Source of the DNA: an uncultured Bacilli bacterium
Lineage (GTDB): Bacteria > Bacillota_I > Bacilli_A > RF39 > UBA660
Length of the DNA stretch: 45,924 nucleotides
Assembly (NCBI GenBank): GCA_947623645.1
Contig: CANQHK010000002.1
Span: 1-45,924 of the forward strand
Direction of reading: 5' to 3'
The notes beneath the pieces were generated by a model. That model ran no database searches. It saw only the letters and a program-made list of their open reading frames with translations, and was not told the DNA's origin. Shown piece by piece: positions 25,831 to 44,583 of this stretch; the first letter of the stretch is position 1, and each line of letters begins with the position of its first letter. A program made the position numbers and the translations under genes.

Positions 25831-25895
25831 AATTTTCCACCTTTCTAATAAAGTGTATGTCCAAGAATAAAAAATATGAAAAAAAAAGAAAGCGA

Positions 25896-26168
25896 TTACT
25901 CACTTTCTGGAGCTTCTGCTTCGTTATATGCTTTTAAGATTTCATCTTCAAACATAGCACGAACTTCTGGGTTAATTGGATGAGCAACATCTCTATATTC
26001 ACCAGAATTTGTTTTCTTGCTAGGCATAGCAATGAACAATCCCTTGTCTCCTTCAATAATACGAATGTCATGTACTGCGAAACAATCATCTAATAATACA
26101 GATGCAATTCCCTTCATACGAGAACCTTCTTTCTCGATTTTACGTACATTAACAGATGTAATTTTCAT
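25896..26168 (-). CDS. spoVG: Septation/sporulation regulator SpoVG
   Basis: MKITSVNVRKIEKEGSRMKGIASVLLDDCFAVHDIRIIEGDKGLFIAMPSKK is canonical SpoVG. The start is ATG 26168, behind GAAGGAGGAG. The ORF-track start is 26195. Confidence 0.95.
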   Translation of the reverse strand: MKITSVNVRKIEKEGSRMKGIASVLLDDCFAVHDIRIIEGDKGLFIAMPSKKTNSGEYRDVAHPINPEVRAMFEDEILKAYNEAEAPESE

Positions 26169-26206
26169 ATAGTCTCCTCCTTCTAAAGTTTTCACTTTAC
26201 ATGTAT

Positions 26207-26235
26207 ATCATATACCAATTATTGGGAAATTGCAA
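26207..26235 (-). promoter_or_regulatory. Candidate sigma-A promoter for spoVG
   Basis: On the minus strand: TTGCAA (26235-26230), a 17-nt spacer, then TATGAT (26212-26207), about 40 nt upstream of the spoVG start. Confidence 0.4.
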
Positions 26236-26261
26236 GAAAAGTTGAAAAAAAATTAAAAATT

Positions 26262-26489
26262 TTAAGAATCGATATCTTCAAACACTAGATTTTCAATTAA
26301 TACATCGGAATAACTATAAGATTTAACACGATTATCGGAAAAAGAATGAACTAAAAATACCCCCCGAAAAGTATCGGTAATGACTCCTTGAAAATCATCT
26401 ACTTGCCCTCTGCTTCCACGAAAACAAAAATGAAGAGTTTCTCCTTTTCTCTTTTGAATATCTTCCCGAATTTTTTCAATGTTCATCAT
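26262..26489 (-). CDS. veg: Veg protein (biofilm/sporulation-associated small DNA-binding protein)
   Basis: 75 aa. ...FRGVFLVHSFSDNRVKSYSYSDVLIENLVF resembles B. subtilis Veg (...[33 protein letters not shown]). Its start overlaps the yabG stop (ATGA). Confidence 0.85.
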   Translation of the reverse strand: MMNIEKIREDIQKRKGETLHFCFRGSRGQVDDFQGVITDTFRGVFLVHSFSDNRVKSYSYSDVLIENLVFEDIDS

Positions 26490-27010
26490 CTTGGATACCC
26501 CACATACATTGCACCTTTTGTCATAACTCCCCCAACACCATCTTTCCCATATTTTGTCTTTTCAATAATATGAATTAAATCCAAAACCTGATTTCTATCA
26601 GACAAAGCAATACTACTAGCAAGAATAGCAGGATCCAGAGCATGAATATTGACTCGCTTCGGACTTGATGCAAATGTTGCACCTGCTTTAATCAACTCTT
26701 CATAATCACTTTGACAAGCACCAGCAATAATTGCAAGCTTATCCGGACTCTTTTCATAATTTCGAGCAACTTTTACCGCATCTACAAAATAAAGAGAGTT
26801 CTTATAGTTTTGAATATCTGTCTTACTCCCTTTTCTTTTATAATAAGCATCATGTCCTGTAATCACAACAATATCTGGATTTAATTCTTCCAAATAATGT
26901 CCAATTTCTTCTCCGATATTTTCTTCTTCAATACATGCTCCATATGCCATAATATGAAATTTCTGATAAAATTTTAAACATCGATTTAAATAATCTTCAT
27001 CCCCGTCTGC
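26486..27010 (-). CDS. yabG: yabG 3' segment (C-terminal ~172 codons of the sporulation-specific protease YabG, peptidase U57); split gene
   Basis: The ORF-track protein carries IVVITGHDAYYKRKG, IIAGACQSDYEELIKAGATFASSPKRVNIHALDP. Extending the frame upstream of the annotated Met gives *QESADGDEDYLNRCLKFYQKFHIMAYGAC, which matches B. subtilis YabG ...LDGDEAYLKKCLNVYKKIGVPVYGIHC. There is no start codon or RBS at the true N-boundary. Confidence 0.88.
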   Translation of the reverse strand, partial: ADGDEDYLNRCLKFYQKFHIMAYGACIEEENIGEEIGHYLEELNPDIVVITGHDAYYKRKGSKTDIQNYKNSLYFVDAVKVARNYEKSPDKLAIIAGACQSDYEELIKAGATFASSPKRVNIHALDPAILASSIALSDRNQVLDLIHIIEKTKYGKDGVGGVMTKGAMYVGYPR

Positions 27011-27019
27011 TGATTCTTG

Positions 27020-27028
27020 TTAAGTAAC
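27020..27028. repeat. Left element-side inverted repeat TTAAGTAAC (putative recombinase-binding arm)
   Basis: TTAAGTAAC at 27020-27028 is the exact reverse complement of GTTACTTAA at 40536-40544. In the excised circle the two would flank the core with a 21-nt spacer centred on the shared GC of the core. Confidence 0.55.
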
Positions 27029-27166
27029 TTTGTAGGTTTTAAATAAAGGCAACTCTTTGCCATAATGGAGATTTAAGGAATTTCTGGATTTTTTATATTT
27101 ATATTACAGAATTATCTTCTTGAACTGTCCTAATATATACTACCTTTCTTCTAATTATATATCTTC

Positions 27167-28729
27167 CTAATACAACTTTATTTTTTTAGGAGCTCCTAAT
27201 TCAAATCGAAATGATAATTTTAATGTATTATCGCTATAAACTATAATTTCTTTTATCCAATCTCGAACACTATTGTTTACAAATTCATCATTATTTATAA
27301 ACTGACTATATTTTTCAATCATTTCTTCTCTTCGTATTTTTTCATTTTTGGATTCCATTATTTTTTTTAACATTTGCTCGGATTGTTCTTTCTGTTTTAC
27401 TTCTTTTTCTTTTCTTTCAACAAATTCATTTAAAGTGATTTCTCCTGTAGTCTTTTTCAAATACAGATTTCGAATATTAGCGTTATGAAATTCAATATCT
27501 TCTTTTAAATTCGATATTTTCAAATCAAGTCTTTCATTTTTTAATAGATCTTTCGTTACTTTAGAAACAATTTTTTCTGAATCAACATAGGTATTCATAA
27601 TATCTTTCAAATTTTCTTTAACAATTGTCCTTAATCGAGAATCTGCTATCTTTCTGTTTTTACAACGCTTTCTATTAACAACTTTCCCACATCCAAAATA
27701 ATATTGTTCTTTTCTATCATTTTTTTGAACTCTACATGGAGTCATTGCTCTTCCACAAGTACCACAAATAACTAAACCACTAAATAAACCACAATAATCT
27801 TTTTTTTCTCTTTTTTTAATTTGTTTTAATTTCCTGTTAGCTTCTTCAAACAATTCATCATATATAATCGCAGGATGACAATTTTCTATTGTTTCCCAAT
27901 CTCTTATAGGTATTCCTTGTCTTTGTTTTTGATGATAGTCTTGCTTCATTGATTTTCTTTTAACAATTCTTCCTGTATAGGTTTGATTCTTCAATATTCT
28001 ATAAATAACATTACTAGACCAATCATAGTAATATTTTTTCTTTTTACTAGGTGTCATTTTCATATAAAGTATAGGAGGTAAAATTTTATCTTTATTTAAC
28101 CCATCTGCTACTTCTTGTCTAGTTTTCCCACTTGCTACTTCCGTAAAAATTCTCTTCACTATATTTGCAGCTTCTTCATCTACTTCAAGAAATCTTTGAT
28201 CTTTCATTTTCTTGATTCTATATCCATAAGGTGCCATAAATCCAATAAATTGTCCTTCTTCAGTTTTTGCCATTGCTACTTGTTTTCTTTTTATGGATGC
28301 CTCTTTAACATATCGATCATTAATTAAAGAACGTATTCCAAACATTATTTGTTGTTCACTATCTCCAAGATTATTGCTATCAAAACAATCATTAATAGCA
28401 ATATATCGAACATTATATTTAGGAAAATACTCACTTATATAATAGGCAGTTTCTAAAAAATTTCTTCCTAATCTAGACATATCTTTCGTTACAACGATAC
28501 CAATGAAACCACTTTCAATATCTTCTTTTAACTTTTCAAATCCAGGTCGTTCAAAGTTAATTCCCGAATACCCATCATCAATATATTCTTTGTCCACTAT
28601 CAATCCCATACTTTTAACATAAGATTTTATAAAATTCAATTGATTGTATATACTAGATGAATATTCCTTTTCTTTAACTAAATCTTCCTGAGATAATCGC
28701 CCATAAGAAACAGTTAATCTATTATCCAT
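27167..28729 (-). CDS. Large serine recombinase (TnpX/TndX/SpoIVCA-like)
   Basis: N-terminal resolvase domain YGRLSQED...DDGYSGINFERPGF...VVTKDMSRLGRN, a recombinase domain, a Cys-rich zinc ribbon (CGTCGRAM...GCGK...C) and a C-terminal coiled coil. The likely start ATG at 28729 overlaps the upstream recombinase stop (TATGGATAA). Confidence 0.9.
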   Translation of the reverse strand: MDNRLTVSYGRLSQEDLVKEKEYSSSIYNQLNFIKSYVKSMGLIVDKEYIDDGYSGINFERPGFEKLKEDIESGFIGIVVTKDMSRLGRNFLETAYYISEYFPKYNVRYIAINDCFDSNNLGDSEQQIMFGIRSLINDRYVKEASIKRKQVAMAKTEEGQFIGFMAPYGYRIKKMKDQRFLEVDEEAANIVKRIFTEVASGKTRQEVADGLNKDKILPPILYMKMTPSKKKKYYYDWSSNVIYRILKNQTYTGRIVKRKSMKQDYHQKQRQGIPIRDWETIENCHPAIIYDELFEEANRKLKQIKKREKKDYCGLFSGLVICGTCGRAMTPCRVQKNDRKEQYYFGCGKVVNRKRCKNRKIADSRLRTIVKENLKDIMNTYVDSEKIVSKVTKDLLKNERLDLKISNLKEDIEFHNANIRNLYLKKTTGEITLNEFVERKEKEVKQKEQSEQMLKKIMESKNEKIRREEMIEKYSQFINNDEFVNNSVRDWIKEIIVYSDNTLKLSFRFELGAPKKIKLY

Positions 28730-30311
28730 AGTTAACCTCATTTATATTAAAATTAAAGAAAATTTTAACGGTTTTATCTTCATGGATTTCGATTCTATGA
28801 ATCAATGTCCTTAAAACTTCTTTATCAAAATTTTTTGTTTTTAAAAATTCAGAAATGTATTTTCTTTTCGTTTTTTCGTCCGTTAAAATGTTCTTTAGCT
28901 TTCTTATGAATATTTTTAAATCTGCTATTTTTTCTTCACATTTTTCTCTATCTTGCTCTAAATCTCTTTTTATTCCAAAAAATTCATCCTTAGAAATAAT
29001 ATTATTTGCTCGATCCTTATATAAATTGCTAATAGCCTTATCAATCGTAATCATTTTGGATTGATAATTATTTAAAGCATTTTCATATTTACTTAAAACA
29101 TTAAAATTACATAAAGAGGTTTCATATTTTTTTTCTAAAGATTCATTATTAGAATACTTGATTAAAATTGTTCTAATTTCCTTTAAAACAAGATCATTCA
29201 AATCTTCTTCTCTATAATAATGCATTGTGCATACATGATTACGATAAGTTGCATAGGTTCTACACAGATATATTGGAGTAATTTTTGTAGAGCTCTTCTG
29301 CCCTTTTACGCGTCGTACTAACATCGTCTTACCACAATCACCACAAACAACGAATCCTTTTAATAAATAATCATATTTTCGATGTCGTATATCCGTTCCT
29401 CTTTTGGGAGAATTAACTCTTTCAAAAATTTCGGGAGAAATAATTTGAGGTAATACTCCTTTTTTTATTATCCACTTACTTCTTGGCAGTAATCTTTTCT
29501 TTTTCGACTTCAAGCTAACTCTTTCATATTTTCCTTGAATCAAAGTTCCTATATAAGCTTCATTTTCTAATATATGTTTAACAGAAGAGGCCTTCCATAT
29601 ATTTGTAGTTATCGTGACTTTTTTCATTTTCTTGCCTCTATAAACATCTGGAGGTTGAATCCCTTCCTTTGTTAAAATTCTTGCAATCCTTCCTTCCGAT
29701 TGTCCTCTATCTTTTAATTCAAAGATTTTTTGAACAATTGGTGCAGCATATTCATCAATAACAAGTAGTTTACTATTTTCTTCTGATCTTTTATATCCAA
29801 AAGGAACAGAACTACCTACAAATTCTCCTTTTTTCATCATATCGTGTCGAACACTTTTAATTTTTTTTGATATATCTTTTAAATACATATCATTGATAAC
29901 TGCCTTAAAAGGAATTATATCTTCTACTCCATTAGGAGTTAAAGAGTCATAATTATCCAATATAGCAATATATCGAATATTATGTTCTGGAAAATACTTA
30001 AATACATAATTGCCCGTTTCTATAAACTCTCTACCTAATCTAGACATATCTTTTGTAATTACACAATCGATTACACCATTTTCAATGTCATTTATTAGTT
30101 GGCGAAAAGCAGGTCTATCAAAATTACCACCAGAATATCCATCATCAACATAGTAATCATATATTTCAATATTGTTTTTCAAAGCAAAATCTTTTATAAA
30201 TGCTCTTTGATTTTTGATACTTATACTTTCATTATTTTTATTATCATCTTCTATTGAAAGCCTTAGATATCCTCCTGCTTTGTATGTTTTATCAGTTAAG
30301 CAATTGTTCAT
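28722..30311 (-). CDS. Large serine recombinase (second, paralogous)
   Basis: YLRLSIEDD...DDGYSGGNFDRPAF...VITKDMSRLGRE, zinc ribbon CGDCGKTM...C and a coiled-coil C-terminus. The likely start is MNNCL at 30311, behind AGAGAGGGTG. The ORF-track start is 30353. Confidence 0.9.
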   Translation of the reverse strand: MNNCLTDKTYKAGGYLRLSIEDDNKNNESISIKNQRAFIKDFALKNNIEIYDYYVDDGYSGGNFDRPAFRQLINDIENGVIDCVITKDMSRLGREFIETGNYVFKYFPEHNIRYIAILDNYDSLTPNGVEDIIPFKAVINDMYLKDISKKIKSVRHDMMKKGEFVGSSVPFGYKRSEENSKLLVIDEYAAPIVQKIFELKDRGQSEGRIARILTKEGIQPPDVYRGKKMKKVTITTNIWKASSVKHILENEAYIGTLIQGKYERVSLKSKKKRLLPRSKWIIKKGVLPQIISPEIFERVNSPKRGTDIRHRKYDYLLKGFVVCGDCGKTMLVRRVKGQKSSTKITPIYLCRTYATYRNHVCTMHYYREEDLNDLVLKEIRTILIKYSNNESLEKKYETSLCNFNVLSKYENALNNYQSKMITIDKAISNLYKDRANNIISKDEFFGIKRDLEQDREKCEEKIADLKIFIRKLKNILTDEKTKRKYISEFLKTKNFDKEVLRTLIHRIEIHEDKTVKIFFNFNINEVNYG

Positions 30312-30394
30312 TTGCACCCTCTCTTTCTTCCTAACTAACTCCACATAATACAATCATTATAAATTGCCTATAAATTTATTTCCAATGTATAAAT

Positions 30395-30520
30395 TTATTG
30401 ATATTTTCCTTCTCGCAGTGTTGACTTCAAATATATTTCAAATGCTTCTAAAATTTTTTCTTGAATTGTTGGAGCATCTTCATCAAAAACACATATAACT
30501 AATTCCTTGCTTTTATTCAT
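30395..30520 (-). CDS. Small unannotated ORF (41 aa) heading the recombinase module; candidate accessory/directionality factor
   Basis: My own translation is MNKSKELVICVFDEDAPTIQEKILEAFEIYLKSTLREGKYQ*. A strong RBS (AGAGGAGGGA) lies 5 nt upstream of ATG 30520. The ORF is below the ORF-track size cutoff. The function is pure inference from position. Confidence 0.4.
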   Translation of the reverse strand: MNKSKELVICVFDEDAPTIQEKILEAFEIYLKSTLREGKYQ

Positions 30521-30565
30521 AGTATCCCTCCTCTTTAAACTTATGAATTTTTTCTTAATTAATGA

Positions 30566-30608
30566 ACAAAAAAATTAGAACAATCTACTTTTGTCTACTG
30601 TTCTAATT
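30566..30608 (-). terminator. Terminator separating the cargo operon from the recombinase module
   Basis: 10-bp perfect stem AATTAGAACA/TGTTCTAATT (30573-30582 / 30599-30608) with a 16-nt loop, followed on the minus strand by T7 (plus-strand A-run 30568-30574). It lies about 150 nt after the stop of the 689-aa gene. Confidence 0.5.
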
Positions 30609-30761
30609 TGTTTCAATAATATAATAAAATTCGGTTTTAAATTTCTTAATTACTTAATATTAATAAGTATTGCTTGATACTTTTTCATGAAGATTGAAAT
30701 CTTTATATGATTTTATCTCAATCACAGTTTCAGCGAAATTATCTATTTTGTTGAATATTTT

Positions 30762-32831
30762 TTATTTTGTAATTGTTTTTCTATCCTTTGCCTTAATTTT
30801 GGATTGATGGTTGGTGTCATATTTTTTCAATATTGCTAATGTTGTTTCTGGAACTAACTGTGCTACTTTTTCCCAATCATTATTATTCAAAGCTTTTCTC
30901 ACTTCTTTCGCACTAATCGCAGTACCATTTATATCCATAAATCGAGGAATTTCAATAACTTCTATTCCATACAATGGCAAATTATTCTTTAATTCTCTAT
31001 TATAGGATGCAGTTATAATATCTGTTTTTTCTTCTCCTACAAATCTCTTTTTTACATTTAACGTCGGTGCAATATAATCAGTAAATATCTCTCTATCTAA
31101 TGATAAATCTAATGTAACATCTGTTTTTTCATCCCTATTAAAATATTCTGGGAAAATCATAGAAGAACCAAAAATTTTTCCACTTGGAATGACTGTTACA
31201 TTCGAAAAATGTTTACAACCATTCTGTACCATTTTAAATCTATCATCAAACTTAAATATAGACTTATCATCTTGAACTACAATAACAAATAATTGTTCTA
31301 CTTGTTTAGAAACATAATCAATTAGATTATAGTGACCATAAGTAAAAGGATTACAATTCATCAATATAGCACCATTAGGACCCCTAGATATGTTCAATTT
31401 TCTAAGCATATTTAAGTATTCCTCAATATACTTATTATTTTCAAAAACTTTTCTTTTAATCTCTCGCTTTATTGGTTGGGCTAATTTTTTATTATCTGGA
31501 TTTCGAATCAATAAATTATTTTCTATTTTACTATACATATATTCAGCAACATGAGAATTAGCAACGTGATTACAATGGGCTGGTTTGTCGATAAAATAAT
31601 TATGAAGAGTAGTATCATTAAATACAGGTAATAAAGAAATCACATCACTATAACCGAGCTCTAATAATCTTTGCTTTTCTTTGCTTGATATTGTAAACAC
31701 CATTTTATCTCCATTTTTTACATTTACAGAATCAGCAATTCGAATTTGTTCAGGCAATTCCATTGCTCTTAAACCATAATTATTTACAGAATAATCCCTA
31801 TCCTCTTTATTTACCTTTCTCTGTAAATAGCTTGCAATGGTGTGTGCATCATCAACTAAAGCACCATATATCATACAAGGACCAAACAAATTGATGTCAA
31901 AAGCATAATCATGAATTTTATCTGTAGTATAGCGAATACCATTAATACTCTTACAAAAATTATTATTTGAATCAGCCAATCGACAAATACCATTTTTGAG
32001 AATTGTCCCAGGAGATAAATTTTTCCTTTCTATGTAATCTTCTGTAAATAAATCTCCCAAAACATTTTCTAATAATTGCCTGATTTCTAAATCATTTTTA
32101 TAATTACTTAAATAGTATATATAATTTACTTTTGCTGCCATCCTTAATTTTTCTGAAAAAGATAAATTCGTAATTTGTTCTTTATCAGGAAATTCAAAAA
32201 CAATTGTCTCATAGTCTTTACATTTTAAAAATTCATTTACAAAATAATAAATTTCAGCATCATTACACAATTCATTAATTGATACATTTTTTGAAATATC
32301 AAGACTTTCAAATCGAGCTTTTTTTACAATTTCTTCCTTCAATTGTTTAGAATTATTGTCCGTATCAATTAATAATGAATTCGGATGAAGTATTGCTTCC
32401 AAATAATGATCATAGGAAGTTTCAAGCAAAACTATCTGAAAATTATTTCCATAAACATTAATATAATTATATAATTCTTGAGATAGCTTTCCCATTATAA
32501 ATACAGTTTCAGGATTTTGACTTCTTACATAATTCATTATTTTATCATTATTGGCATATAAACATTTCCACCTATCTAAATCAATAGAGGTGTCTTTCCA
32601 TTCACTAGAGTTGTTCAGTTCTAAATTTTTTTTATATACAGCTACTTCGTCCATTGATATTTCTAAATTAGCACCACTTAATAAATTATTTAAAAACGAT
32701 TGATATGTAACAAAGTGTGCATCATCAAATGCAACAATAATTTCTTGATTTTGTAAAAATAAATTTATCAGTTTTCTTTTTAAATTTTCTTCTTGCTTAT
32801 TTATATAACAAATATTTTTATTATTTACCAT
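30762..32831 (-). CDS. 689-aa fusion protein: unknown ~470-aa N-terminal region plus a C-terminal CitC-like (citrate lyase ligase-type) nucleotidyltransferase domain
   Basis: The C-terminus GAILMNCNPFTYGHYNLIDY...FTDYIAPTLNVKKRFVGEE...ISAKEVRKAL...LVPETTLAILKKY parallels CitC (NANPFTLGH...; ...RFVGTEP...; ISASRVR...; LVP..TL). The TxGH and ISxxxxR motifs of the cytidylyltransferase-like superfamily are present. I do not recognise the N-terminal region. Confidence 0.65.
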   Translation of the reverse strand: MVNNKNICYINKQEENLKRKLINLFLQNQEIIVAFDDAHFVTYQSFLNNLLSGANLEISMDEVAVYKKNLELNNSSEWKDTSIDLDRWKCLYANNDKIMNYVRSQNPETVFIMGKLSQELYNYINVYGNNFQIVLLETSYDHYLEAILHPNSLLIDTDNNSKQLKEEIVKKARFESLDISKNVSINELCNDAEIYYFVNEFLKCKDYETIVFEFPDKEQITNLSFSEKLRMAAKVNYIYYLSNYKNDLEIRQLLENVLGDLFTEDYIERKNLSPGTILKNGICRLADSNNNFCKSINGIRYTTDKIHDYAFDINLFGPCMIYGALVDDAHTIASYLQRKVNKEDRDYSVNNYGLRAMELPEQIRIADSVNVKNGDKMVFTISSKEKQRLLELGYSDVISLLPVFNDTTLHNYFIDKPAHCNHVANSHVAEYMYSKIENNLLIRNPDNKKLAQPIKREIKRKVFENNKYIEEYLNMLRKLNISRGPNGAILMNCNPFTYGHYNLIDYVSKQVEQLFVIVVQDDKSIFKFDDRFKMVQNGCKHFSNVTVIPSGKIFGSSMIFPEYFNRDEKTDVTLDLSLDREIFTDYIAPTLNVKKRFVGEEKTDIITASYNRELKNNLPLYGIEVIEIPRFMDINGTAISAKEVRKALNNNDWEKVAQLVPETTLAILKKYDTNHQSKIKAKDRKTITK

Positions 32832-32860
32832 ATTACCCTATCCCCTGTATAAACATTATT

Positions 32861-33613
32861 TTACGGACGAACTATAGAAAGAATAAAGTCTATAATTTCA
32901 TCATCATATCCATATAATTCGTGTTTTCCATCTTGTATTGTAGTCAAACTTAATCTATGCTTTGTACAAAATTTTTCTATATTTTCATAAAGAACCGTCT
33001 TATCCAAAGTACCTTGTATAATTGATATATTGTCAAAATTAGAATTTTTTATTTTTTTATCACCATTTTTAAACTCATCATAACTATTTTTATAAATCTT
33101 AATATTATTATATAAAGGCATATACTCATTAGTCTTGAAATAATCATTAGAAATACCAGATTTATTTTCCATTATTTCACAAAAGTTGATTGCTGGACAC
33201 ATTAATATAGTGTTTCGTATATCAGATTTTTTTTCTAAAAGTCGATTTAAAATGACAAAGCCACCAAAACTACAACCAAATAAATAAATAGGTACATTGT
33301 ATTCTTTTGCAACAAAATGAATTACATCATTTAAATAATCAATACACCTGCTTAAAGTAAATTGAGAAAAATCGGTTTTATCTTCTCCGTGCCCAGGAAA
33401 ATCAAAAGCATAAACTCCCAAATTATTTTCTAATAGTCTATCATAAAATCTTGTAGCCCAATTTTTATTACTACCTAGTCCATGACAATAAATAATGATT
33501 CCCTTTAAATGATTACTTGGTATTGCACTAAAAACATTAATTTTTCCCATTAATATGCTATTCATTTTAACCCGTGTATCGTTTTTTGCTATATTAATCT
33601 TATTTTCATCCAT
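32861..33613 (-). CDS. Alpha/beta hydrolase (serine hydrolase)
   Basis: 250 aa. IIYCHGLGSN, FDFPGHGED and the nucleophile elbow GCSFGG (GxSxG). Confidence 0.75.
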   Translation of the reverse strand: MDENKINIAKNDTRVKMNSILMGKINVFSAIPSNHLKGIIIYCHGLGSNKNWATRFYDRLLENNLGVYAFDFPGHGEDKTDFSQFTLSRCIDYLNDVIHFVAKEYNVPIYLFGCSFGGFVILNRLLEKKSDIRNTILMCPAINFCEIMENKSGISNDYFKTNEYMPLYNNIKIYKNSYDEFKNGDKKIKNSNFDNISIIQGTLDKTVLYENIEKFCTKHRLSLTTIQDGKHELYGYDDEIIDFILSIVRP

Positions 33614-33651
33614 AAATATCCCTCATTCATATATAATTTTAAACCATTATA

Positions 33652-34455
33652 TCATATCTTTCCAATATATTTTTCAAACGTCTTTTTATTAGGATAATTT
33701 ATATTATCTAATTCCTTATATAATTTTAGATATTCATAATCTACAGATTGTTCAACAATATCCAATTCTCCATTTTTCTCTTCAAGTATATAATAAATCG
33801 CAGCTTTATCTATAGCTACACCTGTTCCATTCAATGAATAAAACTCTGTCTGATTGAATTTATGATGCCTATAAAAATGATAATGACCATAAATTATAAC
33901 ATCATAATTATCTATAGTATTACCAAAAAACAGTGGATCGTTATCTGCAGAAACAACATTTTTTGTTTTAGGTAAAGTAAATCTTATATCTTTTGAAGTA
34001 TTTGTATCAAAAAAACATTCTGGGTGCTCACCCTCATACTTCCATACACCAGAATAATCATATCGTACATCAATTGGAAAATGACATAAAGCTACTTTGT
34101 GATTATTAAAATTTAATTCAATCGTGTGTGACTGTTCTTTTAAAAATTGAATTTGCTCTTGGCTGAGTTGTTTTTCAGTCCATATAGCATTATAATATCT
34201 TTCTATATTGTGATTTTTCAAATATGGAAAACATTCAGTACCTAATACTATATATTCTTCTGCATTTCCTAATATTGTCATTATATTATTTTCAATTAAT
34301 AAATCTAAACATTCTTTAGGAGAGTTTCCTAATCCTATTACATCTCCTAATGAATATACTTTTCTTATGTTTTTTTTCTTTATATCTTCGAGCACACTTT
34401 TTAATGCTTCTAAGTTAGCATGGACGTCAGTTATTATTGCAATCTTATCTTTCAT
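33652..34455 (-). CDS. Metallophosphoesterase (calcineurin-like superfamily)
   Basis: 267 aa. Motifs IITDVHAN (DxH), SLGDVIGLG (GD), LGNAEE (GNxE) and YGHYHF (GHxH). Confidence 0.8.
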   Translation of the reverse strand: MKDKIAIITDVHANLEALKSVLEDIKKKNIRKVYSLGDVIGLGNSPKECLDLLIENNIMTILGNAEEYIVLGTECFPYLKNHNIERYYNAIWTEKQLSQEQIQFLKEQSHTIELNFNNHKVALCHFPIDVRYDYSGVWKYEGEHPECFFDTNTSKDIRFTLPKTKNVVSADNDPLFFGNTIDNYDVIIYGHYHFYRHHKFNQTEFYSLNGTGVAIDKAAIYYILEEKNGELDIVEQSVDYEYLKLYKELDNINYPNKKTFEKYIGKI

Positions 34456-34471
34456 AATTATACCTCATTTC

Positions 34472-34500
34472 TTGATATTTTATTTACTTTATGATACTAT
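34472..34500 (+). promoter_or_regulatory. Candidate sigma-A promoter (extended -10) for the Tmk-like kinase gene
   Basis: TTGATA (34472-34477), a 17-nt spacer, then TGaTACTAT with -10 TACTAT (34495-34500), about 27 nt upstream of ATG 34527. Confidence 0.4.
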
Positions 34501-34526
34501 AACATAGCCAAGGAAGTGAGCGATTT

Positions 34527-35015
34527 ATGCTAATCATTGAAGGTTTAGATGGTAGTGGTAAAACAACATTAATAAATCATCTTCGAATGGATAATAAAAA
34601 AGTTTTAATACCAGAAAACATTCTTAATTCTTTTGTGAAATACCAAAACCTGTTAAAAGAATTATCATCAGACTCAATGATGGATCGATCTTTTATTAGT
34701 GAAATGGTTTATGGAAAAGTATTGTCTAATAAAACAAAATTAACAGAAGAGGAATACCAACAGTTATTAAGCTTGTACTCCAAAAACAATTCAATTATTA
34801 TATATCTCTATGCACCAAAAGAAATTTTATTAATGCGTAGAACCAGTGATAAAAAAGATCAATTTGTATTATCAAAATTTTATGAAAAATTATTAGATGA
34901 ATTTGAGTATCGTTTAAATCAAGCCCATACTTTTTTACCTACTTATAAAATTAATACTTATGAAAATGATGAAAATCAAGTTCTATCGAAAGTAAAAAAA
35001 CTATCTAAATTCTAA
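34527..35015 (+). CDS. Thymidylate-kinase-like P-loop nucleotide kinase (short form)
   Basis: 162 aa. LIIEGLDGSGKTTL P-loop, MDRSFISEMVYG (DR(Y/F)xxSxxAY-type NMP-binding motif) and a Lys/Arg lid-like segment MRRTSDKK. It is the only plus-strand gene in the element. Confidence 0.7.
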   Translation: MLIIEGLDGSGKTTLINHLRMDNKKVLIPENILNSFVKYQNLLKELSSDSMMDRSFISEMVYGKVLSNKTKLTEEEYQQLLSLYSKNNSIIIYLYAPKEILLMRRTSDKKDQFVLSKFYEKLLDEFEYRLNQAHTFLPTYKINTYENDENQVLSKVKKLSKF

Positions 35016-36287
35016 TTTTTTTGTAAAATTTGGAATATGAATTGTTGAGACAATTTCTGGAGAATAAGTAACGTTTTGATGTCTATCTAATTCAAATGAT
35101 GGTTTCAAACTCAATAATATCAAATCTTGCATCGACAAAATATTTCTCATGAATAAAGCTTTATCATAATGAATAGAAAAATCTCTATTTATATTTTGTC
35201 TTTGTACCAAAGCTATTTTTAACGTATCATTGTTTTTTAATACACTGTCTAATAAACCACCTAAATATGTTAATATTATTTCTGTTTCTCTTTTTGAAAC
35301 ATTATATTCAGATAACAACATTTTCATATTATCCATACAAGCGCTCATATTTCTATTAAAAAATGCTGTTCTATTATATCTTGCCTCATCAATCATATAT
35401 TTACCATTACTAACCAATCTAGATAGAAAAACAGGAGATAATATTGAATAATAATAAGCAGCACCAAAATTATCAGTAGTAAAAAAGTTTGGATATAATT
35501 GATAGTCCCAGTTTTGTTGAAATGAATCAGTTATACCATTTTTTCTAAAAATATCATCAATCATCTTCATACTTTCTACATCACAACAATTAAATTCACC
35601 TGATAAACCATATTTTAAAACAGTTTCTTCAAAATTACTATTAAATCCATGAAAACAATATCCATCGTTAATATACTTTTGTCTGATCAAATTTAGTATT
35701 GTTTCTTTTGGAGTTTTACTAAAATTCTCTTTTTGAAGAATATTTCTAATTAAAATATCATCACATTTTTTTAAAACTTCTTCAAATGACTCACTACTTT
35801 CACAAACTTGTATTAGACAATTATAGTATTCATGAACAAATTTTTCATTTTGAATATCCTCTCTATTTATAATCATATATTGATATATTTTTTGTAGCAA
35901 AAAAGATTGAATAAAGAGTTGTTCATCTGCCCATCCATAATGATGAACACCAATTTGTGTTAAATCATATTTAAAATTTTTTCTATTTAAAATATCAAAT
36001 ATATCTTCTAATAAAGTAATATTAAGTACTTTTTCAAAATATTGAACAAATTCATTTCCATTATTATTTTTTGAAGTTTGGTTTCCATAAATTTTACAAC
36101 TGCCATCAATATCAACATTCATTATATTTCTATGACTTATAATCTTTTTAGACAAGTTATAGTATTCATCTTTTGAAAGTTTCATTTTTTGACAAATCAT
36201 ATTTATTGCTATTTCTTTAAATATCTTTTCTTTAGAGTCCATTTCTACAATCATATTGTATAAATCCATATTTTTATCCATTTTCAT
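35001..36287 (-). CDS. Hypothetical 428-aa protein (orphan; no recognisable motif)
   Basis: Long ORF translationally coupled to the upstream NUDIX gene by a 14-nt overlap. No TM helices or catalytic motifs that I can identify. Confidence 0.5.
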   Translation of the reverse strand: MKMDKNMDLYNMIVEMDSKEKIFKEIAINMICQKMKLSKDEYYNLSKKIISHRNIMNVDIDGSCKIYGNQTSKNNNGNEFVQYFEKVLNITLLEDIFDILNRKNFKYDLTQIGVHHYGWADEQLFIQSFLLQKIYQYMIINREDIQNEKFVHEYYNCLIQVCESSESFEEVLKKCDDILIRNILQKENFSKTPKETILNLIRQKYINDGYCFHGFNSNFEETVLKYGLSGEFNCCDVESMKMIDDIFRKNGITDSFQQNWDYQLYPNFFTTDNFGAAYYYSILSPVFLSRLVSNGKYMIDEARYNRTAFFNRNMSACMDNMKMLLSEYNVSKRETEIILTYLGGLLDSVLKNNDTLKIALVQRQNINRDFSIHYDKALFMRNILSMQDLILLSLKPSFELDRHQNVTYSPEIVSTIHIPNFTKKLEFR

Positions 36288-36708
36288 TTAAATACATTTC
36301 TATAGCTTTTTTCTGATATGGTAATTCTAATTTTTCTAAAATATGATTCTTATCCATTATTATCAACTCGGACTCTTTTTCTAATGGAAGTAATATCTTA
36401 TCATCTATTTCTACTAAAAAAATATGTGCTAATGATTCCATATTAATATTATCTCTAGTAACCCAATAACAATCTATAGTATATAATTCTTTTGCTTTTT
36501 TTACCAAACAGCCACTTTCTTCTAGAAATTCTCTTTTTAAACATTCGAAGCATGATTCACCTTTTTTGATTCCTCCACCTATTAATGAAATTTCATTATT
36601 TTTTTTTGTTAAATACATTTGATTGTTTTTTTCATATATTCCAAAACATGTCTCCCGGAATATATAATGAATTCCCTTAGATTTTATTCCAATTTGTACT
36701 TTTTTCAT
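36274..36708 (-). CDS. NUDIX hydrolase
   Basis: 144 aa with an intact Nudix box, GGGIKKGESCFECLKREFLEESG (GX5EX7REUXEEXGU). Confidence 0.85.
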   Translation of the reverse strand: MKKVQIGIKSKGIHYIFRETCFGIYEKNNQMYLTKKNNEISLIGGGIKKGESCFECLKREFLEESGCLVKKAKELYTIDCYWVTRDNINMESLAHIFLVEIDDKILLPLEKESELIIMDKNHILEKLELPYQKKAIEMYLNENG

Positions 36709-37487
36709 TAATCATCCCACACTTTCCATGGTGCTTTTCCTATTTTTAGTAATTTATTTAAATATTCTCTTTCACTTTGAAAGTCCATACATTGCCAAAA
36801 TCCAAGATGTTTATATGCTGCTACTTGGTTTGTTAAAACGAATTTTTCTAGTATTTCTTTTTCAAATGATTCTGAGTCTGGATTTAATTCTTTTAAAACA
36901 GCCTTATTTATAACCATAAATCCAGCATTAATCCATTCATCATCTTTTAAAAATTTTTCTCTAAAATAATCCACTTTATTATTTCGAATTTCTACAACTC
37001 CAAATCTCTCTTTTCTTTTTACAACGGATATTGTTACCAAACTGCTATTATTTTTGTGAAATTGATATAAGTTCTTGATGTTGATATCAGAAACTGCATC
37101 AGCATAGGTTAAGAAGAAACAATCACTGTCATCATCCAGATACCTTTCGACCCTTTTTAACCGTCCACCTGTCTGTGTATCTAATCCAGTATCAACTAAT
37201 GTTATTTTCCAATCTTCACTATTATCGTTAATGATATGAATATCATTATTTTTAAAATCTAAATTTAAATCCTTTTTTTTATTCATTAAGTTAATAAAGT
37301 ATTTTTTAAATTCTTCTTGCTTATATCCTAAACATATTATAAACTCTTTAACGCCATAATAATAGTAAATTTTCATTATATGCCAAATAATTGGCTCTTC
37401 ACCTACTGTAACCAAAGGTTTAGGCGTTGTATCATTTTCAACCTTTATCCTACTACCCTTACCTCCTGCAAAAATAACACATTTCAT
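36708..37487 (-). CDS. Glucose-1-phosphate cytidylyltransferase-like sugar-phosphate nucleotidyltransferase (RfbF/DdhA family)
   Basis: MKCVIFAGGKGSRIKVENDTTPKPLVTVGEEPIIWHIMKIYYYYGVKEFIICLGYKQEEFKKYF closely follows the RfbF N-terminal signature. At 259 aa the length is typical. Confidence 0.8.
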   Translation of the reverse strand: MKCVIFAGGKGSRIKVENDTTPKPLVTVGEEPIIWHIMKIYYYYGVKEFIICLGYKQEEFKKYFINLMNKKKDLNLDFKNNDIHIINDNSEDWKITLVDTGLDTQTGGRLKRVERYLDDDSDCFFLTYADAVSDINIKNLYQFHKNNSSLVTISVVKRKERFGVVEIRNNKVDYFREKFLKDDEWINAGFMVINKAVLKELNPDSESFEKEILEKFVLTNQVAAYKHLGFWQCMDFQSEREYLNKLLKIGKAPWKVWDD

Positions 37488-37495
37488 ATTTCCTC

Positions 37496-39175
37496 CTATA
37501 TCTTCAAAATACTTGCATTATTAATTGATGTATTCCAATAATATCCCGTTTCTTTTTTTGCAACTATTATTCTTATCCCCAATCTTTCGGTTAAATAGGA
37601 TATTTCATTAAAATCTAGCTCTAAATCTTTTATAATAACAGTTCGATTTTTAAATTCTATTTGATTTTTAGAAATTTTTTTCTGTAACTTTTCTATTAAT
37701 GAAACTATATATTCTTTATCAGGAAATTCAAATTGTTCAAACTTCTTTTTACAAAGATTTCTTTGAGAATTTGGACAATTATTGCAATTCAAGCAGATAT
37801 CTGTATTATAGAAAAATTTTCTATCTGGTTGATGCAAAGCATATCCTAATGCACAACTTGTTGTTTGAAAGATAGGATAATTTCCATTTTTTGCAAGATC
37901 ATTCCATAAATAATCATAAGCTTTATTGTTCCATACATTATCTGACTTTAAAGCATTATTTCTATTTTCTTTCAATTCATTCCATTCTATGTTATCAATA
38001 ATATCATTCGTTGTTTTTAAGCCTATTGCAACAGAAGCTACACAATATTTTTTTACAAATTGATATATTTTAAATATATCTTTTTTACTAGAGTTTTGTG
38101 GAATAAATGGTCTCCAGTAATGAATAATTGTTTTTCCTTTCTGGGATAATTTAATAAAGTTATTTTCTATTATCTTCTTATTAACCCCCACTTCTATATT
38201 TCTGTCCAATCCTGAATAGCTCAAAAAGAATATAAACTTATGACCTAATTTTTCGTAACCATCAATAAAATCAATAAAATCATCAGGAATATCACATTTT
38301 GATATAAAAATTATTGGATTTTTTATTTTTCGTTCCATAAGAATTTCTATTAATTGTTTCAAATATTCTATATTATCTGAAGTAGAAAAAACATCCGTTT
38401 GTGAAAATAAGCATAATGGCATATCAGGGATATAAAATTTGCTTTCTAATAATTGATTTACTGCTTGTTCAGGACTAATTAAAACTATAGGCTTTATTTT
38501 ATTTAATCCTCTCTCTTTAAGAAAACAATACTTACATTGCTTAGGGCAACCTTGTATTGGATTTAAAACTAACCAAGTTGCATGAACATCTACAATTGGA
38601 TAAAATTGTGGTGTTTTTTTCTTTTCAAAATCATTAAGAAACTTCCTTGCATCCATAACCATTTTATTAAATTCAATTTCAAGATCTAGCTTTAAATCAT
38701 ATGCAATAGAAAATACTATTTCAAATAATCGTGCTAAATTGAAATATAAAAAGTCATCTTCTTTCGCAAAACCATATCGTATCTTATAATGCCTATATCC
38801 ATATTTTTCTAAAACTTTTTCGGAAATTTCTCCATACAGTACATTAAAACTCATTAATGCCTCTGATATATTTTCAAATTTGATATAGTTATAATTATAA
38901 TTGTAATTTTGAATATCTAAGTCCAATTTCCAACAAAGGCTAAATAATTGTAATACAATATCGGATAGTTCATCTCCGAGATCATTTATTTTTCTGCCAG
39001 TTTCACCATATTCCTTATGAGATGAAATTAGGTAATTAAAGTGTCCCAATTGAACATTTAATTCAGCTAAAACAGTGATTGCATCCCAACTTTTATTTTC
39101 TGTAATCTTAAATTGTTCTTTTAATTTAACTGCAATTTGGTAATTTTTTTTTATAAATGCTTTAATGTTCTCCAT
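37496..39175 (-). CDS. Fusion protein: N-terminal MazG-like (all-alpha NTP pyrophosphohydrolase-like) region plus a radical SAM domain (SplB/COG1533-like) with a C-terminal Cys cluster
   Basis: The N-terminal pattern VLAELNVQLG...INDLGDELSDIVLQLFSLCWKLDLD resembles small MazG/YpjD-type pyrophosphatases. The CxxxCxxC motif NPIQGCPKQCKYCF is encoded at 38525-38548. A further cluster, CLNCNNCPNSQRNLC, lies near the C-terminus. The likely start is ATG 39175 (GGAGGTAAATATG). The ORF-track start is 39187. Confidence 0.75.
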   Translation of the reverse strand: MENIKAFIKKNYQIAVKLKEQFKITENKSWDAITVLAELNVQLGHFNYLISSHKEYGETGRKINDLGDELSDIVLQLFSLCWKLDLDIQNYNYNYNYIKFENISEALMSFNVLYGEISEKVLEKYGYRHYKIRYGFAKEDDFLYFNLARLFEIVFSIAYDLKLDLEIEFNKMVMDARKFLNDFEKKKTPQFYPIVDVHATWLVLNPIQGCPKQCKYCFLKERGLNKIKPIVLISPEQAVNQLLESKFYIPDMPLCLFSQTDVFSTSDNIEYLKQLIEILMERKIKNPIIFISKCDIPDDFIDFIDGYEKLGHKFIFFLSYSGLDRNIEVGVNKKIIENNFIKLSQKGKTIIHYWRPFIPQNSSKKDIFKIYQFVKKYCVASVAIGLKTTNDIIDNIEWNELKENRNNALKSDNVWNNKAYDYLWNDLAKNGNYPIFQTTSCALGYALHQPDRKFFYNTDICLNCNNCPNSQRNLCKKKFEQFEFPDKEYIVSLIEKLQKKISKNQIEFKNRTVIIKDLELDFNEISYLTERLGIRIIVAKKETGYYWNTSINNASILKI

Positions 39176-39177
39176 AT

Positions 39178-40038
39178 TTACCTCCATATATTCTTTCTTA
39201 ATGTCAATTCTTTCGAATATTCTTCTTTTTCTTCACCATTCAATATTTTTGCTTTATTTTCTAGAACACTCATGTAATAATTAATTAAATTATTTCGAAT
39301 AACACTATTTGATTGTTTTAATATAATTTGGTTATAAAACACATCACAGTAAGACAATACATCATAAGCTTTTTTTACTTGATTTTGGTAATTAGAATTT
39401 CGCATAATACCATTTGAATTTTTATAATAATTGTATCCTATGTAAGGAATACTAGATACACAACTTGAACTATCTAATACTAAAGATGTAATAGCAAAAT
39501 CTTCTTGTAGCTTTCCATTAGGAAATTGAAAATTTTTCTTTTTCCAAAAATCAGTATTATAGGCATATAACCATACAGGACTATATATTTCATAATTTCT
39601 TGCAAATTTATTCAATACATCGATTCCTTTTCTATTTTGAAAGCTAGATGTTACAAATTTTTCTACAATTTTATTATCATCATCAACCATTATTGCCTGA
39701 TAACGAACAACATCATTTTTTGTACTTTGCTCATTTAATTTTTCAAAGAGATTCTTTTCAATCCAATCATCAGAATCTATGAAAATTATAGTGTCTCCTC
39801 GAATTTTTGAAAGTGCATAATTCCTTGCACTACTAACATCTTTAAAATTAACTTTAAAATATCTTATACAAGGATTATCATAATTATTATGTATTAACTC
39901 ATAGGTTCCATCTATACTATAATCATCAACAATAATAATCTCAAAATTTTTATAGGTTTGATGTAATATAGAATTCAAACATCTAGAAATATAATCTACT
40001 CTATTATGTGTTGGAACAATAACACTAAAATCTCTCAT
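39178..40038 (-). CDS. Family 2 (GT-A) glycosyltransferase
   Basis: FSVIVPTHNRVDYISRCLNSILHQTYKNFEIIIVDDYSIDGT and the DxD motif IFIDSDDW. Confidence 0.88.
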   Translation of the reverse strand: MRDFSVIVPTHNRVDYISRCLNSILHQTYKNFEIIIVDDYSIDGTYELIHNNYDNPCIRYFKVNFKDVSSARNYALSKIRGDTIIFIDSDDWIEKNLFEKLNEQSTKNDVVRYQAIMVDDDNKIVEKFVTSSFQNRKGIDVLNKFARNYEIYSPVWLYAYNTDFWKKKNFQFPNGKLQEDFAITSLVLDSSSCVSSIPYIGYNYYKNSNGIMRNSNYQNQVKKAYDVLSYCDVFYNQIILKQSNSVIRNNLINYYMSVLENKAKILNGEEKEEYSKELTLRKNIWR

Positions 40039-40058
40039 TTTACCTCCAGTATTTAAAG

Positions 40059-40103
40059 AAAAAAGTGAATACGAAAGCTATGATGCTTGCCATATCCACT
40101 TTT
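40059..40103 (-). terminator. Intrinsic-terminator-like hairpin inside the 5' leader of the cargo operon (possible attenuator/riboswitch expression platform)
   Basis: Minus strand: AAAAGUGGAUAUGGCAAGC-AUCAUA-GCUUUCGUAUUCACUUUUUU. This is a ~14-bp stem with one bulge and some G-U pairs, followed by U6. It ends about 20 nt before the GT2 start codon, just upstream of the GGAGG RBS. Confidence 0.5.
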
Positions 40104-40146
40104 GATATTTTATATTGCAATTATCACAGGGCAAACACCCTCAAAA

Positions 40147-40175
40147 ATTAGCATTTATTATACAACTAAAGTACC
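40147..40175 (-). promoter_or_regulatory. Consensus sigma-A promoter for the cargo operon
   Basis: On the minus strand: TTGACA (40175-40170), exactly 17 nt, then TATAAT (40152-40147). Both hexamers match the consensus perfectly. The predicted 5' UTR is about 100 nt. Confidence 0.6.
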
Positions 40176-40535
40176 CTTTTGTCAATAGAGTTAACATTAT
40201 TGCAATCATTATTACAGTATAATTATTATTTTAGAGATAATGCTTTTCAAAAAAGTCTTTATCAACTTCACATTTTTGATGTATTACTACAATTAGACAT
40301 ATTCTTTCTATATTTAAAAAAACTATGTATGGCAATAAAAAAAGAACTGAAAATCAATTCAATTCTTGTTATGCATTGTTCGTTAAAATTTATATTCCTT
40401 TTAATTACTTAGGAATATATCCGCCTCTTCAAATGAATGTAATATTTTTTTAAATCACTAAATTTTTTTAATTTTTTCGCTTTATTAGAAATTTTCAATT
40501 TGCTTTTTTCTTTATAACTAAAGGGTTTGCGAGTG

Positions 40536-40544
40536 GTTACTTAA
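40536..40544. repeat. Right element-side inverted repeat GTTACTTAA
   Basis: Exact reverse complement of 27020-27028. It lies 6 nt from the right junction core. Confidence 0.55.
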
Positions 40545-40550
40545 TTTAAT

Positions 40551-40832
40551 GTCAGCATCGATATGTAAGATTTTTCCAGGCAGATAAAAATACTCGTTTC
40601 GATCAAGAGAAAAATCTTTATCCATTCGGTCTAACAAATCTTTATCATCTATGACTTCATCTTTTCCTTCTAACTTTAAATCATCTATTTTACTATCAGC
40701 ATAAAGACGAATATTAACTCCCTTTAAGTAAACCATATCTCCTTCTATTCGGATAATTTGAAAAACGGTATCATTATCATAGGAATTACGACTTACATAA
40801 TCTCCAACATTAAAAAACATAAGATCACCCAA
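40551..40832 (-). CDS. yabG: yabG 5' segment (N-terminal ~94 codons); split gene
   Basis: FNVGDYVSRNSYDNDTVFQIIRIEGDMVYLKGVNIRLYADSKIDDL...YFYLPGKILHIDAD matches the B. subtilis YabG N-terminus (QIGDMVARKSYQMDVLFRIIGIE...RLIADSDFSDL...YFHMPGKVLHLDGD). After ...HIDAD the frame runs 10 unrelated codons (IKLSNHSQTL) into the element and stops at 40518. Confidence 0.88.
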
Positions 40833-43807: not shown

Positions 43808-43909
43808 ATCAGCCCACCTATCTTATTATTCTACATTATAAATATGATACCACAAATTTTATAAAAAAACTATGGATTTATAAACTTTTTTTTAAGATTT
43901 GTAAAGCAT

Positions 43910-43943: not shown

Positions 43944-43945
43944 TC

Positions 43946-44581: not shown

Positions 44582-44583
44582 TT

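Follow-up and report, generated by a model that had tools for sequence, protein, structure and literature searches.

A non-phage element with two serine recombinases splits the sporulation gene yabG in uncultured gut Bacilli and is probably excised during sporulation to restore it

When a sporulation gene is found in two pieces on a bacterial chromosome, it has to be asked what separates the pieces and whether the gene can be made whole again. This question is raised by the gene yabG in a 45,924-nucleotide stretch of DNA from an uncultured Bacilli bacterium (contig CANQHK010000002.1 of assembly GCA_947623645.1), which was analysed over its whole length and is called the window here; all features of the window given below lie on its minus strand unless stated otherwise. 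The gene consists of an N-terminal half at 40832..40558 and a C-terminal half at 27005..26486, with an insert of 13,552 bp between them (the intervening element, 27006..40557, counted with one copy of the GA dinucleotide at its ends). An original prediction, made from the sequence of the window alone, had regarded the insert as an intervening element of the skin/SPbeta type. The analysis reported here bears out the intervening element: YabG is colinear across the join, the attachment (att) sites attL and attR form a conserved pair that shares a GA core, the recombinases are intact, and a sigma-E-like promoter motif of the recombination module is conserved. It departs from the prediction as to kinship with phage-like elements, as the insert holds no phage genes and belongs to a distinct, widespread family defined by two recombinases and a 41-codon open reading frame (ORF).

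The N-terminal half of yabG (40558..40832) has its likely true start at the ATG at 40820 (MFFNVGD), with a TTG at 40832 as an alternative, and ends in ...KILHID at the GA crossover. The ORF called at 40518..40832 therefore encodes the YabG N-terminus followed by 12 element-encoded codons (ADIKLSNHSQTL) and a stop, the end of the ORF reading ...YFYLPGKILHIDADIKLSNHSQTL; the original prediction had described this ORF correctly and had counted 10 unrelated codons, a number that rises to 12 since the N-terminal half ends at ...LHID. On the other side, the ORF at 26486..26950 lies in a frame that runs on upstream without a stop as far as 27019, as had been claimed, and that reads ...QESADGDEDYLNRC..., in full QESADGDEDYLNRCLKFY...GYPR and a stop codon. 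The C-terminal half proper (26486..27005) runs from GDEDYL to GYPR and contains the conserved motifs GHDAY and AGACQS. As a check on the join, the prediction had proposed an alignment of the fused product with the peptidase U57/YabG family model. The protein fused in silico as originally drawn matches Pfam PF05582 (Peptidase_U57) from end to end (positions 1-280 of 280, E = 3e-87), so that the join holds as an in-frame, YabG-colinear fusion, but its junction, HIDAD|GDEDY, lies 6 nt off. Two residues of that fusion (AD) are missing from every intact YabG relative aligned (...LHI--DGDEDY), and this surplus arises because the DNA crossover sits at a GA dinucleotide common to attL (40559-40558) and attR (27007-27006). 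With the joint at GA, the protein reads ...LHID|GDEDY... in the same register as the intact relatives, and the rejoined gene is colinear with them codon for codon at 83-90% identity; the intact relatives, found in metagenome assemblies, are up to 89-90% identical. A joint at GAC|GGG was rejected, with two codons absent from all intact relatives and a non-palindromic attP. The restored YabG has 260 aa from MFFNVGD, or 264 codons from the TTG at 40832, and these values, together with the insert length of 13,552 bp, replace the earlier figures of about 266 aa and 13,546 bp.

Empty sites in relatives had been proposed as a further check, and two contigs with an uninterrupted yabG (L178 and L179, 80-83% nucleotide identity) align to both flanks of the insert. 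Homology to them stops at 40556-40559 and at 27007, that is, at the crossover bases. The gene also occupies the conserved slot rsmA-yabG-veg-spoVG that the original prediction had recognized, the flanks having been verified by gene identification. The split of yabG is real and far beyond chance, because the fusion is in frame, the match to Peptidase_U57 is end to end and the neighbouring genes are conserved.

The two ends of the insert have the structure of recombination sites. At attL (40530..40590), the host arm ...AATCTTACATATC is followed by the GA core and by the element arm, the junction reading CATATC-GA-TGCTGACATTAAATTAAGTAAC; the element arm is conserved in two related contigs, L007 and L016. 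At attR (26980..27036), the element arm GTTACTTAACAAGAATCAGCA is followed by the GA core and the host arm CGGGGATGAAGATT, so that the site reads GTTACTTAACAAGAATCAGCA-GA-CGGGGATGAAGAT, with a consensus for the element arm, GTTACTTAAC-N5/6-TCAGCA-GA, that is shared throughout the family. Recombination at GA would give a predicted attB, ...CATATCGACGGGGAT..., which encodes HIDGD like the intact relatives (the junction is also given by GGAAAAATCTTACATATCGACGGGGATGAAGATT and ...CTGGAAAAATCTTACATATCGACGGGGATGAAGATTATTTAAATC...). The reconstructed attP, GTTACTTAA-N6-TCAGCA-GA-TGCTGA-N7-TTAAGTAAC, forms an imperfect dyad with a 2-bp core (predicted junction sequence GTTACTTAACAAGAATCAGCAGATGCTGACATTAAATTAAGTAAC, ...CAAAGTTACTTAACAAGAATCAGCAGATGCTGACATTAAATTAAGTAACCACTCG...). 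A dyad of this kind around a 2-bp core is the anatomy expected of a site for large serine recombinases (LSRs). Half-sites of the attP type occur only twice in the whole 45.9-kb window, at the two element ends; an internal second att pair, as in a nested element, was rejected for lack of further half-sites in the window.

The end of the element next to the C-terminal half of yabG is occupied by a compact module in the order orf41, LSR2, LSR1, terminator hairpin and attR. LSR2 (28722..30353) is a large serine recombinase with an ORF of 543 aa and a likely start at the ATG at 30311, which gives 529 aa; it has the Pfam domains Resolvase, Recombinase and Zn_ribbon_recom, 7 family members share its Y-x-R-L-S catalytic motif without change, and its identity across elements is 55-87%. 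LSR1 (27167..28741) is also a large serine recombinase (ORF of 524 aa; 520 aa from the likely start ATG at 28729); its homologues form more than 100 clusters at 42-84% identity, with an invariant catalytic S17. A look-up of the exact 524-aa product gave no entry, probably because translation really starts at that ATG, four codons further down. A metagenome scan with degenerate peptide patterns from the LSR1 alignment returned, among the matches listed, generic recombinases with at most 38% identity. The two proteins are 32% identical to each other, and their ORFs overlap by 20 nt as listed, or by 8 nt from the ATG at 28729. Both retain full domain sets and the catalytic serine (Y-x-R-x-S across the family) and are located about 160 bp from attR; the recombinases that had been predicted inside the insert are these two, as identified by Pfam. 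A terminator-like hairpin, GGCAAAGAGTTGCC followed by TTTATTT (27048..27061), comes after LSR1 just inside attR and is kept in L007, L010 and L016. The third gene of the module, orf41 (30395..30520), has 41 codons (MNKSKELVICVFDEDAPTIQEKILEAFEIYLKSTLREGKYQ) and is a candidate recombination directionality factor. It is found directly upstream of LSR2 in every element examined. It looks like a real gene: its substitutions are distributed as in coding sequence (87, 61 and 134 differences at the first, second and third codon position, respectively), and it has 31 homologue clusters of 35-52 aa, all unnamed.

The same module has been found at the same place in a whole family of elements. The genomic context could be read for 13 distinct LSR1 clusters (45-84% identity) in ENA, Logan and NCBI assemblies and in six GTDB species representatives, which are labelled 'uncultured Bacilli bacterium' and come from the gut of rabbit, mouse and water deer. 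In all 13 clusters, orf41-LSR2-LSR1 lies directly upstream of a yabG fragment that starts at residue 88 and is followed by veg, and insertion elsewhere than at this yabG codon has no example among the 13 elements where downstream sequence exists. Every YabG C-terminal half seen is one unbroken match to residues 88-260. Both ends of the element are in view in L007 (9,544 bp) and L016 (8,927 bp), where the N-terminal half is present and a join at GA yields a full-length YabG. An extra small gene with a resolvase domain (131-191 aa) occupies the gap between LSR1 and attR in three contigs (L010:11583-12158, L173:11620-12015 and L188:5579-6076), where L010 holds two more small ORFs besides; the element of the window is without the extra resolvase and the ORFs. 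An independent contig, L006 (ENA ERZ27249187), shows the same LSR1-attR-yabG-C-veg junction at 97-100% identity. In this contig (1,774 bp, coverage 1.6), a stretch of 23 nt downstream of LSR1 is duplicated, and 152 bp are missing from the C-terminal half of yabG (window 26597-26748); these differences could be real, with yabG damaged in a true variant, or could stem from faulty assembly.

Comparison of closely related elements with their hosts reveals recent horizontal transfer. In L173 and L174, the visible 12.1 kb of the element are 100% identical and the host flanks only 69-73%, the identity dropping exactly at the crossover; between L188 and L189 the element is 99.97% identical and the host flanks 82-85%. 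The identities of LSR1 and of the YabG C-terminal half do not run in parallel (83% and 61%, respectively, in L016; 45% and 72% in L017). Since near-identical elements occupy hosts with divergent flanks, the element is mobile at present, with recent transfer between species, and the comparison shows that different species have received it by site-specific integration into one and the same codon. The possibility of a relic that is inherited vertically and decaying was ruled out by the identical elements in divergent hosts and by the independence of LSR identity from host YabG identity. Altogether, the attP dyad with its shared 2-bp crossover, the fixed target and the horizontal mobility correspond to an LSR integrative element in general; the interrupted mother-cell sporulation gene (PF05582), the element's own recombinases beside the att site and a GA excision that restores a colinear ORF correspond to an intervening element of a sporulation gene (skin/SPbeta/gin/yin type) in particular.

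Promoter motifs offer a clue to when the module may act. Upstream of orf41 lies a sigma-E-type motif, TCATTAA-N13-CATAAGTT (30538..30565), which was judged against the B. subtilis consensus (T/G)(A/C)ATA(A/T)(A/T) ... CATACA(A/C)T as quoted in bioRxiv 10.1101/2020.04.13.040188. In an alignment of nine elements the TTCATA box is invariant and precedes the ribosome-binding site of orf41 by about 10 nt, and the TCATTAA box stands 13-14 nt further upstream; the full pattern precedes orf41 in 9 of 12 elements. A relaxed form of the pattern occurs five times in 91.8 kb (both strands), one occurrence being before orf41 and one before yabP. The latter, a near-consensus TCATATT-N13-CATACACT at 25852-25879 directly before yabP (25540-25830) and yabQ, served as the internal positive control of the motif search. 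In B. subtilis, yabP is sigma-E-dependent. As a near-consensus motif precedes yabP-yabQ, the host would seem to use B. subtilis-like sigma-E promoters, and the conserved motif before orf41, as a consensus match, may point to sporulation-specific expression of orf41 in the mother cell. A sigma-A-type promoter, TTGGAA-18-TATAAT (30356..30385), is found between orf41 and LSR2 and is kept, exactly or nearly, in about half of the elements.

The insert is thus a non-phage integrative element placed in codon 88 of yabG (HID|GD) by site-specific serine recombination, one of a family defined by its module and carrying exchangeable cargo, and we consider it fairly probable that its excision in the mother cell, timed by sigma-E and orf41, restores yabG. 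The sigma-A-type promoter would provide low-level recombinases which, acting alone, would integrate the element by attP x attB recombination on entry into a new host. During sporulation, mother-cell sigma-E would switch on orf41, the proposed 41-aa directionality factor, which would steer the recombinase(s) to excision by attL x attR recombination. An intact yabG would in this way be rebuilt in the terminally differentiated mother cell before its late (sigma-K-type) expression, and the element, retained in the forespore chromosome, would be inherited. Expression of yabG takes place in the mother cell under sigma-K in B. subtilis. It is sigma-K-dependent also in Clostridioides difficile (PMC3789822). 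A strict sigma-K consensus (AC-N16/17-CATAnnnTA) has no match upstream of yabG or on the element coding strand. The two recombinases may act as a heteromer, or they may divide integration and developmental excision between them.

This excision model is drawn from the motifs and from three precedents, C. difficile's skin element (skinCd), gin and yin. The original prediction had left open whether a yabG-targeting element had been described before, and one has: yin of Clostridium botulinum V73 is a prophage with one recombinase that interrupts yabG (Douillard et al. 2023, PMC10747680). Excision of yin restores yabG and gives a circle, as demonstrated by polymerase chain reaction, and in public genomes, as its authors state, a second yabG-disrupting element had not been found by November 2023 (PMC10747680). 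The element described here shares with yin the interrupted yabG, an LSR with Resolvase, Recombinase and Zn-ribbon domains, and a proposed small directionality factor with a sporulation-type promoter. The difference, as judged from the published description, is that yin is a Caudoviricetes-like prophage known from one strain only, with a single recombinase by the 5' half of yabG, whereas the present element has neither prophage gene content nor a single recombinase adjoining the 5' yabG fragment, carries two recombinases and orf41 by the 3' half, and belongs to a large family whose hosts are uncultured Bacilli instead of Clostridium. A non-prophage precedent is gin, which interrupts gerE in Bacillus cereus ATCC 10987 and has three recombinases (Abe et al. 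2017, PMC5595907). Its excision depends on GirC and the 42-aa directionality factor GirX, both expressed in mid-sporulation, while girAB are dispensable and silent (PMC5595907). Both gin and the yabG element are non-prophage elements in a mother-cell sporulation gene with several serine recombinases, which in gin include the two-gene girAB operon; they differ in target gene and host clade, and the yabG element has exactly two recombinases, both kept in every element. In size, orf41 (41 aa) matches GirX (42 aa).

The promoter arrangement that we infer for the yabG element is that of skinCd, in which the recombinase is driven by sigma-A and the directionality factor by sigma-E (PMC5025042). The skin elements of 15 species have only the recombinase in common, located at the edge beside the 3' fragment (Galperin et al., 10.1101/2022.02.25.481979). 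Members of the skin group (B. subtilis SpoIVCA; C. difficile CD1231/CD1234) thus resemble the yabG family in sharing only recombination gene(s); they differ in their target sigK, their one recombinase, their mostly prophage-derived content and an excision that is experimentally proven. SPbeta in spsM, 134 kb in size, differs in being an active phage with another target and a single recombinase. It is similar in that an LSR and a small directionality factor, SprA-SprB, rebuild a mother-cell gene (PMC4191935, PMC5499854), and LSR2 is weakly similar to SprA (YokA) structures (E = 7e-14). Among solved structures, TnpX comes closest to both recombinases in the catalytic domain (E = 6e-28 and 5e-26). 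TnpX and TndX cross over at a GA dinucleotide, a point for which confirmation in the literature was not found; they are the large resolvases of the clostridial antibiotic-resistance transposons Tn4451 and Tn5397, which differ from the yabG element in their relaxed target choice and their one recombinase. A yabG-interrupting element is therefore already known in yin, and non-phage intervening elements are also known in gin; new in the yabG family is that it is non-viral, has two recombinases and orf41, is specific to yabG and is spreading among uncultured gut Bacilli. The papers searched on yabG with intervening elements or recombinases contained no description of this two-recombinase yabG family.

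Several observations weigh against the model of developmental excision, and some of them favour a purely selfish element, for which the HIDGD site of yabG would be a safe landing pad, yabG would be inactivated, and excision would serve transfer or occur stochastically in all phases. All 42 contigs read for two family members (42/42) represent the integrated form. The left-end pattern of the element had no match in JGI metagenome contigs, the attP joint none in IMG/VR contigs, and neither an attP nor an element-specific attB junction was found in the scanned JGI and IMG/VR collections. The promoter calls are consensus matches within AT-rich DNA; 3 of 12 elements fail the strict sigma-E pattern, and a clear sigma-A match is absent in about half. 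Moreover, orf41 has no match to named proteins in NCBIfam, PADLOC or PHROGs, and the requirement for two recombinases is without explanation. As the elements have been recently mobile, the yabG halves could be intact because the insertion is young and not because selection keeps the gene restorable. In model species yabG is dispensable for sporulation, so that its inactivation is tolerable. The selfish reading is further favoured by the recent inter-species transfer seen in L173/L174 and L188/L189, by the diverse accessory cargo of the family (toxins, toxin-antitoxin pairs, surface proteins and glycan genes) and by the appearance of yin excision products at all time points in C. botulinum (PMC10747680). 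It nevertheless has to account for an exactly in-frame restoration, for the integrity of both gene halves in all elements seen, and for a target that is a late mother-cell gene like sigK, spsM, gerE, spoVFB and spoVR. The conserved sigma-E-type promoter before the recombination module is of the same type as that of the host yabP, and such wiring would make little sense for transfer alone, because a selfish element has no future in the mother cell. We therefore regard a purely selfish element as possible but rather doubtful.

Other explanations concern the recombinases or the assembly. The LSR genes might be an obligate pair like CcrA/CcrB that integrates and excises in the manner of the staphylococcal cassette chromosome (SCC), with no directionality factor, orf41 being unrelated to recombination. 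SCCmec is indeed similar as a non-phage cassette with a two-gene LSR operon, variable cargo and one fixed chromosomal target; the LSR genes of the yabG family are always in tandem and adjacent or overlapping, both keep the catalytic serine, the CcrB model is the best NCBIfam match of both, and SCC recombinases use several att pairings with no directionality factor (PMC12286644, PMC5595907). However, SCCmec inserts at the 3' end of orfX/rlmH, splits no developmental gene and has no known directionality factor, and the SCCmet_CcrB scores of 82 and 100 bits are far under the cutoff of 900 bits, because of which CcrAB orthology of LSR1 and LSR2 was rejected. In addition, orf41 equals the recombinases in conservation and always stands directly upstream of them, under a conserved promoter of its own, and gin provides a documented case of a 42-aa directionality factor (PMC5595907), so that the Ccr-like reading appears unlikely. 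An assembly or binning artefact, in which a chimeric contig joins unrelated DNA within yabG, might be entertained for an assembly apparently of metagenome type whose exact attL junction was not retrieved independently. Against it stand the same junction in L006, homologous junctions in dozens of independent assemblies, and matching inverted half-sites with a shared GA core at both ends, which leave this explanation practically negligible. A more far-reaching variant of developmental excision is a sporulation-coupled cargo shuttle, in which an LSR with sigma-E-wired orf41 would excise the element in the mother cell and so repair yabG, the other LSR or the heteromer would integrate it into new hosts, and circles released by mother-cell lysis would spread the element with its interchangeable cargo (polymorphic toxins, toxin-antitoxin pairs, giant surface proteins and glycan genes) between species of gut Bacilli; we hold this variant to be improbable. 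If it were true, horizontal gene transfer would be tied to sporulation itself, and the CDP-sugar/glycosyltransferase genes of the window, carried on the excised circle, might have a function at the spore surface.

The remainder of the element is formed by a conserved left end and by cargo. The left end (40240..40557) is non-coding, aligns with L007 and L016 and holds the degenerate start of a ParA-like gene (ATGTCTAATTGT...). This ParA/Soj-like gene start (MSNCKVIAVANQKG... at 40240-40300) is degenerate here and has a counterpart truncated to 37 aa in L007:2610-2723, which matches AAA_31/CbiA; the remnant hints at a plasmid-like ancestor or one resembling an integrative and conjugative element. 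A sigma-70-type promoter, TTGACA-17-TATAAT (40157..40185), faces the cargo operon and is called as a 12/12 consensus match only. The cargo region (30762..40038), annotated with Pfam and NCBIfam, is on the minus strand except for one gene. It begins with a GT2 glycosyltransferase (39178-40038; Pfam), a radical-SAM protein (37496-39187; Pfam) and a glucose-1-phosphate cytidylyltransferase-like near-equivalog (36708-37487; TIGR02623, 299 bits against a cutoff of 300). These are followed by a NUDIX protein (36274-36708; Pfam), a 428-aa protein without assigned function (35001-36287) and, on the plus strand, a dNK/thymidylate-kinase-like gene (34527-35015; Pfam). A metallophosphoesterase (33652-34455), an alpha/beta hydrolase (32861-33613) and a 689-aa protein with a citrate-lyase-ligase-like adenylyltransferase domain (30762-32831), all by Pfam, complete the region. 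Genes yfnH and its operon, for cytidine diphosphate (CDP) sugars, contribute to the spore surface glycan in B. subtilis. By analogy, a role on the spore surface is conceivable for the cytidylyltransferase-like gene and the GT2 glycosyltransferase.

Capsid, tail, terminase, lysis and replication genes are all absent from the insert by Pfam and PHROGs, the PHROGs matches being generic or auxiliary only; LSR1 has no relatives in IMG/VR, its identity to annotated phage records does not exceed 39%, and that of LSR2 to annotated plasmid records does not exceed 36%. Prophage identity was rejected on the lack of phage genes and of IMG/VR relatives and on the phage-record identity of at most 39%. Transfer machinery is not visible in the element. 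That the cargo is an anti-phage defence island was rejected since PADLOC found no defence system. Base composition, offered originally as a mark of the insert, holds in part: the insert has 24-29% GC against about 29-32% in the lower flank, but it is a weak marker because the upper flank (41-44 kb) also has just 26-28%.

The cargo is different in every element of the family. Sister elements carry an AMP-binding enzyme with a hybrid histidine kinase, SUFU/SMI1-type immunity proteins, PemK and RelB/YafQ toxin-antitoxin pairs, an RHS toxin (RHS/YD-repeat, more than 2,058 aa), an M26 peptidase of 3,882 aa, and Big_2/pectate-lyase-like surface proteins, one of them of 1,427 aa with Big_2 domains. 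The giant secreted or surface proteins and cargo of the polymorphic-toxin type (L173:1-5748, L175:1-8099 and L172:2137-6420) are accompanied by immunity-like genes and toxin-antitoxin pairs.

In the flanks, rsmA (40839..41657; Pfam RrnaAD) is upstream of yabG, and veg, spoVG, yabP and yabQ (25265..26489), divIC, tilS and ftsH are downstream. Because the flanks carry the sporulation genes veg, spoVG, yabP and yabQ, they indicate that the host is a spore-former. In the window, rsmA nearly abuts yabG (40839-40832); two genes (187 and 303 aa) lie between them in L001, and about 87 nt in L178. At 42896-45922, three tandem paralogues (211, 222 and 233 aa) with an N-terminal membrane or signal segment have no Pfam match, and downstream of them on the minus strand is a 303-aa protein with an Asn/Lys-rich low-complexity tail that by eye resembles a SipW-type signal peptidase; taken together, they have the look of a sipW/TasA-like cluster. 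In the relatives L001 and L178, too, genes of comparable size that lack Pfam matches lie upstream of rsmA. An ordinary L10_leader (Rfam, 58.8 bits) at 4793-4913 precedes ribosomal protein genes, and tRNA genes were not found in the window.

Programmed excision that repairs interrupted sporulation genes is a classic developmental genome rearrangement in bacteria, and for yabG a single prophage in one C. botulinum strain had been described. With the family presented here, yabG emerges as the dedicated target of a whole non-viral family in uncultured gut Bacilli, represented in metagenome-assembled genomes from rabbit, mouse and deer and in other gut metagenomes; its recombination module of three genes is compact and conserved, and it has clearly passed from species to species in recent times. 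Its diverged sets of recombinases, att sites and small factors with a 2-bp crossover could be used for the study of directionality control and as orthogonal integrases. The family may provide a case of sigma-E-controlled excision beyond the model organisms that is open to testing, and it gives toxins, surface proteins and glycan genes a way of passing between gut bacteria that form spores.

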